64,000 bases of DNA from Candidatus Heimdallarchaeota archaeon (GTDB lineage Archaea > Asgardarchaeota > Heimdallarchaeia > Hodarchaeales > Hodarchaeaceae), in the NCBI GenBank assembly GCA_011364965.1, contig RDOB01000002.1, positions 512,001 through 576,000 of the forward strand, given 5' to 3'. This document shows positions 17,726 through 38,500 of this stretch, in pieces (the stretch's first letter is position 1; every line of letters begins with the position of its first letter). The notes below the pieces were generated by a model. The model was not told where the DNA came from and ran no database searches. It worked only from the letters and a program-made list of their open reading frames with translations. Position numbers and translations under genes: made by a program.

Positions 17726-17766
17726 AAAGAGTAGGAATGATTTGTTTATTAAAAAGCAAAAATAAC

Positions 17767-17791
17767 GCTCAGTTGAGATTTCTAACTGAGC
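17767..17791 (-). terminator. Hairpin GCTCAGTT/AACTGAGC followed by T-rich tract, 3' of histone gene
   Basis: Perfect 8-bp stem about 12 nt after the histone stop, between convergent genes. Confidence 0.6.
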
Positions 17792-17803: not shown

Positions 17804-18070
17804 CTAGATTTTGGACATTGCTAACTTAATATCATCACCCTTAACGGTTTTTCGACCAGAATTATTAGTAATTTCAACCGCATATTTTGCGATTTTTCCA
17901 CCATGCTCTGTAATAATTTCGTTCAAGGCACTAACAGCATCTGCTGACACTCGAAATGCACCTGCATCACGAATGATACGTTCAACCCTCGCGCTAGCAA
18001 ATCCACCTGCTCCAGCCTTCGCAGGAGCCTTTTTTGCCGTTTCTTTTTTAGTAACTTTCTTTTTTGCCAT
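17804..18070 (-). CDS. Archaeal histone with Lys-rich N-terminal tail
   Basis: Histone fold ARVERIIRDAGAFRVSADAV...GRKTVKGDDIKLA preceded by MAKKKVTKKETAKKAPAKAGAGG. Confidence 0.95.
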   Translation of the reverse strand: MAKKKVTKKETAKKAPAKAGAGGFASARVERIIRDAGAFRVSADAVSALNEIITEHGGKIAKYAVEITNNSGRKTVKGDDIKLAMSKI

Positions 18071-18297
18071 TTTGTCATCAATTCCAATTAGTCAAATCAA
18101 GCCAGAAGCTTAAAGAACTATTGCCTTAATAAACTTGTTGCTTTTTTTATTTAGGTGATACCTTTGGAGTTAGCTCATACATGGGATATCAAGAGCTAGT
18201 ACTAAACCTATCATCCTTTGCATCATAGTGAAATCAAATTAACACCCTTCACAAGATGGTACGTGAGTTATTTGGGAAGATATTCAATTCTATTATT

Positions 18298-18921
18298 TTA
18301 AGAAAATTGGTCAGCTATGCACCTATCACAGAGAATAATTCTCTCTCCTCCTCGCTTATCAATGATATCAGAACAATTTTGACATATATAATGTTTACAA
18401 TTTGAGCATCTAAGGATACCAATGTTAGATCTACATAGATTGCATCTAAAGAAACTTAAGTCTGTTTCAAGTTTTGAAATCAGAGATAGAAGTATCTTCT
18501 TAATTGTACTGGGAGTTTTAATAGAGCTATTAGTCCATATAGATTCCATCAGCATTTTAATTGATTTATCGGATATCTCTTTTGGTAAGGCTATATTCAA
18601 GTTTTCAGTTTCTAAGGGGGCAATGATTATTTTCCAAACCGCTTTGGGATAGATAAATACATGTTTCCGATTATTTATTTTGATATCAATCGATCCGATT
18701 AGTCCTGCATCCTCCAAAGCTGATAAATGAAAATCTAATCCCGCTCGTTGCAGATTAAATTCGCTTAATAGCTCTGATTTAGTTAAGAATATGTTTTTAT
18801 TAATGTAAGTGAGGATTTCCAGACGTTTAGTATTTGCTAAAGCTCGAATTAGTTCGAATTGTTGATCTGTAATTATCTTGGAATTTATTTTATGATCGTT
18901 TTCGGAATGAGGATTGCTCAT
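18298..18921 (-). CDS. ArsR-like wHTH protein with C-terminal 8-Cys zinc finger
   Basis: RALANTKRLEIL...LDFHLSALEDAGLI; CNLC-CSNC-CQNC-CDRC. Confidence 0.8.
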   Translation of the reverse strand: MSNPHSENDHKINSKIITDQQFELIRALANTKRLEILTYINKNIFLTKSELLSEFNLQRAGLDFHLSALEDAGLIGSIDIKINNRKHVFIYPKAVWKIIIAPLETENLNIALPKEISDKSIKMLMESIWTNSSIKTPSTIKKILLSLISKLETDLSFFRCNLCRSNIGILRCSNCKHYICQNCSDIIDKRGGERIILCDRCIADQFS

Positions 18922-38077: not shown

Positions 38078-38500
38078 ATGGGTACTTTTGCTAAAGCCCG
38101 AATTGAAGCTATTATGAAGTCGGCTGGCGCCGAAAGAATCTCTGCTAACGCAATATCTCGAATGGATGAACTTTGTGCCGAATTTGGTGAGAAAGCTGCG
38201 AAAACTGCAATCAACCTTGCCTCAACCGCAGGAAGGAAAACTGTTCAAGCAGATGATATTAAATTGGCTGTCTCCAAGATAGGAGACCCGAAATATTCTC
38301 CCACAAAAGGTAAAGCATTCGCAAAGGCTCGCGTGGAAAAAGTGATAAGAGAAGCTGGCGCTTCTCGGGTTTCTGCAGACGCTGTCGATTATTTAAACCA
38401 AAAAATCGAAGCTCAATGCTATACTCTTGCGAAATCAGCCATTGAGATAGCCCGTCATGCCAAACGCAAGACTATTAAAGACACTGACATAATTCCTTAA
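38078..38500 (+). CDS. Tandem (doublet) archaeal histone
   Basis: Two histone folds FAKARIE..GAERIS..GRKTVQADDIKLA and FAKARVE..GASRVS..HAKRKTIKDTDI; AGGTGA SD. Confidence 0.95.
   Translation: MGTFAKARIEAIMKSAGAERISANAISRMDELCAEFGEKAAKTAINLASTAGRKTVQADDIKLAVSKIGDPKYSPTKGKAFAKARVEKVIREAGASRVSADAVDYLNQKIEAQCYTLAKSAIEIARHAKRKTIKDTDIIP

Follow-up and report, generated by a model that had tools for sequence, protein, structure and literature searches.

The window, that is, the whole stretch of 64,000 nucleotides analyzed here, encodes on its minus strand a short archaeal histone whose fold is preceded by a lysine-rich N-terminal tail. The gene, its parts and the signals around it lie as follows.

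17804-18070, minus strand: complete reading frame of the tailed histone, 88 aa and a stop codon (ORF translation and profile matches)
18002-18070, minus strand: N-terminal tail, residues 1-23 (composition, low pLDDT, conserved head)
17807-18001, minus strand: histone fold, residues 24-88 (AlphaFold2, Foldseek, phmmer against PDB)
17846-17866, minus strand: NNSGRKT, residues 69-75 (read directly and mapped via PDB alignments)
18124-18133, minus strand: TATA-box-like TTTATTAAGG, putative promoter, 54-63 nt 5' of the ATG
18075-18085, minus strand: purine-rich GGAATTGATGA, putative Shine-Dalgarno-like element, ending 5 nt before the ATG
17751-17790, minus strand: hairpin, 14 nt past the stop codon, with a U-rich run after its 8-bp stem (GCUCAGUU/AACUGAGC)

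A preliminary description of this DNA had placed an archaeal histone at 17804-18070, and the profile searches bear this out. The protein matches the NCBIfam family archaea_histone (NF043032) with 84.2 bits (cut-off 50) and Pfam PF00808 with 57 bits (cut-off 21.4); the eukaryotic core-histone profile PF00125 gives 31.2 bits, just above its cut-off of 26.4 and far under the PF00808 score. The hairpin beyond the stop codon has a calculated folding energy of -13.2 kcal/mol (z = -3.4), matched by none of 200 shuffled sequences, and together with the U-run it likely marks the end of the transcript; T-runs also follow the stop codon in orthologs of the tailed histone. Orthologous loci were taken by searching genomes of the same order, and 11 of them carry TTTATAAAG or TTTTTAAAG boxes 55-85 nt 5' of the ATG, while in L020, L021 and L024 GGAATTGTGAT or TTGTGATC stretches occupy the site equivalent to the purine-rich element. 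A separate search of genome contigs for related loci returned seven, three of them from Asgard archaea. The genes that neighbor the histone in the window (for an ArsR/zinc-finger protein, an ABC permease and an acyl-CoA ligase) lack counterparts up to about 1.5 kb from the 11 orthologs, which indicates that the tailed histone is a free-standing gene without a conserved operon. The ArsR-type HTH protein, which has an 8-Cys finger, is encoded directly 5' of the histone on the same strand (18298-18921, minus strand), but given the lack of a counterpart at these loci a conserved functional link between the two is unlikely.

Whether the tail belongs to the protein depends on the start codon, and the preliminary description had left room for a true start downstream of the tail. 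An in-frame TGA lies eight codons 5' of the ATG at 18070, and none of the seven intervening sense codons is a start. Between codon 1 and codon 41 there is no ATG, GTG or TTG in frame, and codon 41 is past helix 1, inside the fold. As this is the next candidate start, ordinary initiation cannot produce a tailless histone from this gene, and a start downstream of the tail can be set aside. The layout recurs in the order: at 11 orthologous loci an in-frame stop lies 2-25 codons 5' of the ATG of an M-[A/P]-K-K-K head, and this ATG is the first start to follow the stop, the exception being one alternative TTG at one locus, and the same head begins the proteins of 12 orthologous loci and of about 74 database relatives. 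Judging from the reading frame and its conservation, the 23-residue tail must be translated. The public calls for six relatives (P0009, P0016, P0023, P0034, P0039 and P0049) start 5' of MAKKK, with MIKMAKKK, MKQGFMIKMAKKK or a 116-aa call among them, and these over-long starts are probably mis-calls; P0049 also contains an internal duplication of 19 residues.

The tail (MAKKKVTKKETAKKAPAKAGAGG) contains 8 Lys, 6 Ala, 3 Gly and 1 Pro, so its length and lysine count agree with what had been described, and the glycine hinge noted earlier takes the form of a small-residue hinge, AGAGG, ahead of Phe24. An M-A-K-K-K head and a K/A/P-rich middle precede this hinge. The tail has a net charge of +7, a pI of 10.5 and 35% Lys; the fold alone carries only +3. 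With Lys at 6.6% of the residues in the window's 40 long ORFs, the chance of finding at least 8 Lys in 22 residues is P = 5e-5, and no long ORF of the window has more than 5 Lys among its first 23 residues. The conservation of the tail is, from the sequences compared, more telling than this probability. A search of 5.8 billion proteins gave as its best 50 matches relatives of 80-116 aa, nearly all with M[AP]KKK at the N-terminus and, after it, a stretch rich in K, A and P and a hinge of Ser, Gly or Thr. When 46 of them are aligned, M1 and K3 do not vary, conservation of K4 and K5 is at least 90%, and residue 2 of the tailed relatives is always A, P, S or V. Among the 12 orthologous genes the tail varies in length from 14 to 28 residues, with every length change in frame, and its Lys fraction stays between 0.32 and 0.41. 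Synonymous differences are near saturation (pS 0.61 in the tail and 0.74 in the fold), and the tail's pN of 0.22 is supporting rather than decisive evidence, because the alignment of low-complexity sequence biases it downwards. As judged by this comparison of orthologs, the M-A/P-K-K-K head and a lysine content of about 35% are maintained by selection. In the AlphaFold2 model residues 1-20 are without secondary structure and have a pLDDT below 50, and the tail is predicted to be disordered. A DNA-level pattern that joins the tail head to FAxARVE, with 7-17 residues between them, matched 8 of 400 Asgard genomes, all in the window's own family; a search of representatives at 50% identity placed all the tailed relatives in one cluster and added little.

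The remainder of the protein has the standard fold. The AlphaFold2 model, built on the 46-sequence alignment, has helices at residues 26-35, 43-71 and 78-87 (short, long, short) with a pLDDT of about 91. Foldseek returned HHoB (9qv6_A; TM 0.90, 66% identity) as the best match and HMfB, HMfA and HPhA next (TM 0.87-0.91, 45-51% identity), while NF-YB and the histones of viruses and eukaryotes followed at a clear distance (TM 0.5-0.7, 17-31% identity). In a phmmer search of the PDB, 9qv6 was found at E 3.8e-23, and only archaeal histones reached E 1e-5. With HMfB numbering mapped by an offset of 21, taken from the 1a7w match, the residues that anchor DNA in HMfB (R10, R19, K53/T54 and the R52-D59 pair) are present as Arg31, Arg40, Lys74/Thr75 and the Arg73-Asp80 pair. 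They are invariant in the 46 relatives, and the RKT DNA-binding loop is intact within NNSGRKT. These data show that the protein is an archaeal nucleosomal-type histone with the usual three helices.

A phylogeny with Asgard histones, as suggested in the preliminary description, was calculated from the fold only (tails removed, 140 rows, 65 columns, a quick IQ-TREE search). It unites the tailed forms: 73 long-tailed rows group with one row whose tail has 11 residues in a single clade (SH-aLRT 98), apart from the untailed MAGNFANARVE (HHoB-like) group and the short-tailed MTKKPKRKAGF group. The protein from the window (P0001) is sister to P0002 (support 96, 85% identity). The named closest relatives are from Hodarchaeales, Hodarchaeota and Heimdallarchaeota B3_Heim, and the B3_Heim protein (PWI46740.1) is encoded in G002, a genome of the same order; the genome of the window thus belongs to Hodarchaeales (Heimdallarchaeia, Asgard). 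Histones occur in all 24 genomes of the order that were searched and a full-length tailed match in at least 15. Within the tailed clade the forms with Asn-Asn before SGRKT are nested, and basal members retain the His as GH, SH or NH, so the change from His to Asn arose within an already tailed lineage. The short-tailed sequences (P0069, P0075, P0083, P0089, P0096, P0101, P0103, P0109, P0112, P0117 and P0120) form a clade of their own (SH-aLRT 85) that adjoins the long-tailed clade. Their tails of 7-12 residues are mostly basic (MTKKPKRKAGF..., MAKKGKSKRKAGF...) and their His is kept; they may represent an intermediate or a parallel form of the tail.

The replacement of the tetramer His had been recognized in the preliminary description, and a direct reading and the PDB alignment confirm Asn70 at this position. 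NNSGRKT stands here where HMfB has RHAGRKT and HHoB has RHSGRKT: Asn69 takes the place of a stacking residue (HMfB R48, HHoB R50) and Asn70 that of the dimer-dimer His (HMfB H49, HHoB H51). We set the 74 tailed sequences against the 63 untailed or short-tailed relatives closest to them, and four columns separate the two groups.

Position 48 (HHoB K29): R/K in 55 of 63 outside the clade; S, A or G in 70 of 74 in the tailed clade
Position 69 (HHoB R50, HMfB R48): R/K in 59 of 63 outside; N, G or S in 66 of 74 in the tailed clade
Position 70 (tetramer His): H in 63 of 63 outside; N in 55 of 74 in the tailed clade
Position 88 (extra C-terminal hydrophobic residue): absent in 61 of 63 outside; present in 73 of 74 in the tailed clade

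As the sequences are related, these columns amount to one signature of a clade and not to 74 independent observations. The structures of HHoB provide a map on which the changes can be read (Ranawat 2025, 10.1101/2025.05.24.653377): stacking involves Q16, K29, E32, D36, R50 and K63, and the dimer-dimer face Y44, E47, I48, H51, R54, D61, K68, L64 and Q67. Three members of the charged stacking set are kept or conservatively replaced in the protein studied here (Glu51, Glu55 and Lys82) and three are changed (Lys29 to Ala48, Arg50 to Asn69 and Gln16 to Asp35). At the dimer-dimer face seven of the nine residues are kept (Y63, E66, I67, R73, D80, L83 and K87). The corresponding set by which Henneman 2018 (PMC6136690) recognizes canonical hypernucleosome formers (L46, H49, D59 and L62) reads Ile67, Asn70, Asp80 and Leu83; with its His replaced, this set is not conserved. 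Gly37, the equivalent of the stacking residue Gly16, is present and is invariant in the tailed clade. In HHoB the triple mutant K29A/E32A/D36A still forms hypernucleosomes, but these are loose and have a long pitch (10.1101/2025.05.24.653377). With two of six HHoB stacking residues lost and seven of nine dimer-dimer residues retained, the tailed clade looks built to stack more weakly while it still binds DNA and keeps the greater part of its dimer-dimer face. Residues mapped onto the structure of a relative support such weaker stacking rather than prove it. The clade-wide loss of two basic HHoB stacking residues is the small addition made here.

Several other explanations of the gene have to be weighed. 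If the start had been mis-called, the real protein would be an ordinary tailless histone, and over-long calls do exist among the database relatives (MIKMAKKK..., the 116-aa call). However, no ATG, GTG or TTG is available in frame between codons 1 and 41, a purine-rich stretch and a TATA-like box precede the ATG, and the identical start is kept in 12 loci; the chance of a wrong start appears negligible. A genuine tail may still be a neutral by-product, added without function when an upstream start in AT-rich DNA brought AAA/AAG-rich codons into the reading frame. Hocher and Warnecke 2024 (PMC10919886) argue that tails are easily gained and lost in this way, and the wide variation of the tail in sequence and in length (14-32 residues across the relatives) fits their argument. 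Nevertheless, the long-tailed forms constitute one well-supported clade rather than scattered gains, their M-A/P-K-K-K head is invariant or nearly so, the orthologs hold their Lys fraction and change length in frame despite near-saturated synonymous sites, and tail peptides with modifications have been measured in a relative (10.64898/2026.07.02.735847). A tail devoid of function is very unlikely.

The remaining alternatives concern the role of the protein. The NCBI name of a close relative, P0050, is NFYB/HAP3 family protein, and NF-YB chains are among the structural matches, as would be expected of a low-abundance histone-fold transcription factor resembling NF-YB or the Haloferax histone instead of a component of bulk chromatin. 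However, the similarity to archaeal nucleosomal histones (TM 0.87-0.91, 45-68% identity) exceeds that to NF-YB (TM 0.6-0.7, 28-31%), the full set of nucleosomal DNA-binding residues is present, and homologous tailed histones occur at percent-level abundance, which makes a dedicated transcription factor highly improbable. The other alternative overlaps the explanation that we prefer and puts that idea more sharply, with termination of growth as the chief role: a capstone variant would join the end of a hypernucleosome of untailed histones and stop its extension, through a dimer-dimer face without His and a stacking face without two basic residues. The His to Asn change at residue 70 and the loss of R/K at 48 and 69 across the clade are compatible with this, Henneman 2018 (PMC6136690) grades LC_3 HA as '+/-' for hypernucleosome formation, and Ranawat 2025 (10.1101/2025.05.24.653377) suggests other LC3 histones as possible capstones. 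Yet seven of the nine HHoB dimer-dimer residues are kept, Asn would still be able to hydrogen-bond Asp80, and the basal members of the tailed clade retain His, from which it also follows that the tail is independent of the His loss. We regard termination as the main role as unlikely, though less so than the other alternatives.

The preferred explanation is a composite, to which we assign a probability of about 0.78: the gene encodes a tailed nucleosomal histone of the published Hodarchaeales clade (LC_3 HA/HHoA, HMpB) that wraps DNA, has a modifiable tail and stacks more loosely. The assignment to the LC_3 HA/HMpB family rests on taxon, architecture and clade rather than on a direct alignment. 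A tail combined with the exchanged His is not novel, as both were published in 2018 for HA of Heimdall LC_3 (PMC6136690). Henneman 2018 (PMC6136690) described two tailed histones in LC_3, modelled their tails between the DNA gyres, judged that H49N in HA 'likely weakens' a dimer-dimer hydrogen bond, and predicted less stable hypernucleosomes for it. LC_3 HA/HHoA and the protein studied here come from the same order and share a Lys-rich N-terminal tail on an archaeal fold and H49N; unlike HA, for which Henneman's table gives an R48 stacking contact, the latter carries an Asn there too. Hocher and Warnecke 2024 (PMC10919886) reported both tailed histones and doublets from Hodarchaeales and emphasize that the tails of Asgard archaea and eukaryotes are not homologous. 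In the Cho 2026 preprint (10.64898/2026.07.02.735847), HMpB and HLoB are abundant, the tail lysines of both are methylated or acetylated, HLoB co-localizes with DNA, and in vitro acetyl groups are added to the tail by GNAT and removed from it by SIR2 enzymes of Asgard archaea.

HMpB, from Ca. Margulisarchaeum peptidiphilum HC1, is similar in its disordered tail. HMpB-type tails have 16-32 aa, more than 30% Lys and a pI of about 10.5 (10.64898/2026.07.02.735847), and the tail in the window, with 23 aa, 35% Lys and pI 10.5, fits these ranges. The HMpB peptide detected by mass spectrometry has KKK at positions 3-5, as here, but the rest of the tail differs (KKKATKPAPKTDAPKKR vs. KKKVTKKETAKKAPAK). 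The back-translated HMpB.1 peptide had no match in 83 genomes of the class, among which the HC1 genome is apparently not included. For HMpB, abundance and methyl or acetyl marks have been measured. HLoB of Lokiarchaeia (Cho 2026) likewise has a Lys-rich tail starting AKKK on a nucleosomal histone, but the histone sets of Loki and Hodarchaeales diversified independently (PMC10919886). HHoB (PDB 9QV5, 9QV6, 9QV7), the untailed Hodarchaeales histone that Ranawat 2025 (10.1101/2025.05.24.653377) solved in closed and open assemblies, shares about 66-69% of the residues of the fold (TM 0.90). The two proteins have the DNA-binding residues in common, and Tyr44 and Glu47 of the HHoB 'open' interface are kept as Tyr63 and Glu66. 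Unlike the tailed histone, HHoB has no tail, carries Lys29, Arg50 and His51 where Ala48, Asn69 and Asn70 are found here, and is shorter by one C-terminal hydrophobic residue. HMfB of Methanothermus fervidus (PDB 1A7W, 5T5K) is more distant (TM 0.88-0.91, 45% identity) but has the same fold, with equivalents here of its Gly16, Arg10, Arg19, Arg52-Asp59 pair and Leu62; it has no tail, and its Arg48-His49 corresponds to Asn-Asn in the protein studied here.

The tail had been called eukaryote-like. This holds for its composition, since the H4, H3 and H2B tails of eukaryotes are also disordered, net positive and Lys-based, with alternating small and basic residues; it does not hold for descent, as the tail has no known or detectable homology to eukaryotic tails (PMC10919886), and it is shorter than these. 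Eukaryotic core histone tails are substrates of acetylation and methylation. The fold is only 17-24% identical to that of eukaryotic core histones (TM 0.5-0.7), and none of these reached E 1e-5 by sequence in the PDB search.

The genome, a 2.97-Mb assembly that is 87% complete, contains two intact SIR2 genes, two HDAC-family genes and about 35 GNAT matches; a SIR2 gene lies at C9:608576-609109. We found no SET-domain methyltransferase in this 87% complete genome. This set agrees with the published picture, in which writers and erasers of acetylation are present and the methylation pathway is incomplete. One further SIR2 match (G000:C14:201170-201586, minus strand) is broken by three TGA and one TAA codons and may be a pseudogene or reflect a problem in the assembly.

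From its relatives we infer how the preferred explanation would work. The histone would pair with itself or with an untailed paralogue, giving histone-fold dimers that wrap DNA. The initiator Met would be removed, as the small residue always found at position 2 (A, P, S or V) suggests, and the tail would emerge near the DNA gyres, where its +7 charge per monomer may provide extra contact with DNA, in cis or in trans, and neutralize charge. Accessible lysines of the tail may be acetylated and deacetylated by the GNAT, SIR2 and HDAC enzymes of the same genome, or methylated, and Asn70 together with the lost basic residues (K29 to Ala48, R50 to Asn69) would make stacks or oligomers less tight than those of the untailed HHoB type. 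Modification of the tail lysines is a candidate role, supported through analogy by the marks on HMpB and by the SIR2, HDAC and GNAT genes; altered stacking is another candidate, to which the residues lost across the clade point.

No known archaea are closer to eukaryotes than the Hodarchaeales, and histones with tails that can be modified are a distinguishing mark of eukaryotic chromatin. The gene in the window adds a clean case, its start codon secure, to the archaeal family of tailed histones; no new question arises from it, as the family, H49N, the abundance and the tail modifications are already in the literature. That tailed histones give looser assemblies is a published idea, which the loss of stacking residues refines in a way that can be tested. 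A more tentative possibility, which we consider doubtful, is that the gain of the tail was coupled to the loss of the stacking residues (K29, R50), with the tetramer His lost as well in the larger subclade, and that tailed histones form a distinct functional class. If this were the case, the class would favor open particles that are non-stacked or limited in size, control would shift from stacking to the charge and modification of the tail, and the tailed histones would represent a step, taken in archaea, in the direction of size-limited nucleosomes regulated through their tails.

The histone set of the genome consists of the tailed histone, an HHoB-like paralogue (C11), a doublet, a divergent singlet (C13) and a histone-fold protein with an insertion (C11); a set this small is a minimal system that could be convenient for reconstitution. 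The HHoB-like paralogue (L001 1414-1689; G000:C11, plus strand; untailed form at G000:C11:176694-176870) is a 91-aa ORF whose upstream 24 residues lack the MAKKK head, and its start is probably an internal Met (67 aa), since it groups in the tree with sequences starting MAGFASARVE. The divergent histone of 72 aa (C13:183827-184015, covered by L004) is preceded, about 2.7 kb 5' on the same strand, by one of the two HDAC-family genes (G000:C13:180218-181069). The doublet has 140 aa and lies within the window at 38078-38500 on the plus strand; in its N-terminal half ST replaces the Arg-His before AGRKT, and its C-terminal half keeps RH but stops short within helix 3. At least 15 genomes of the order contain open frames of 145-158 aa in which histone profiles match twice, and this type of doublet has already been published (PMC10919886). 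The histone-fold protein with the insertion (L006 1480-1836, G000:C11:605218 region, minus strand) has 118 aa; the insertion is long, and PF00808 matches the C-terminal half only, with 22 bits.
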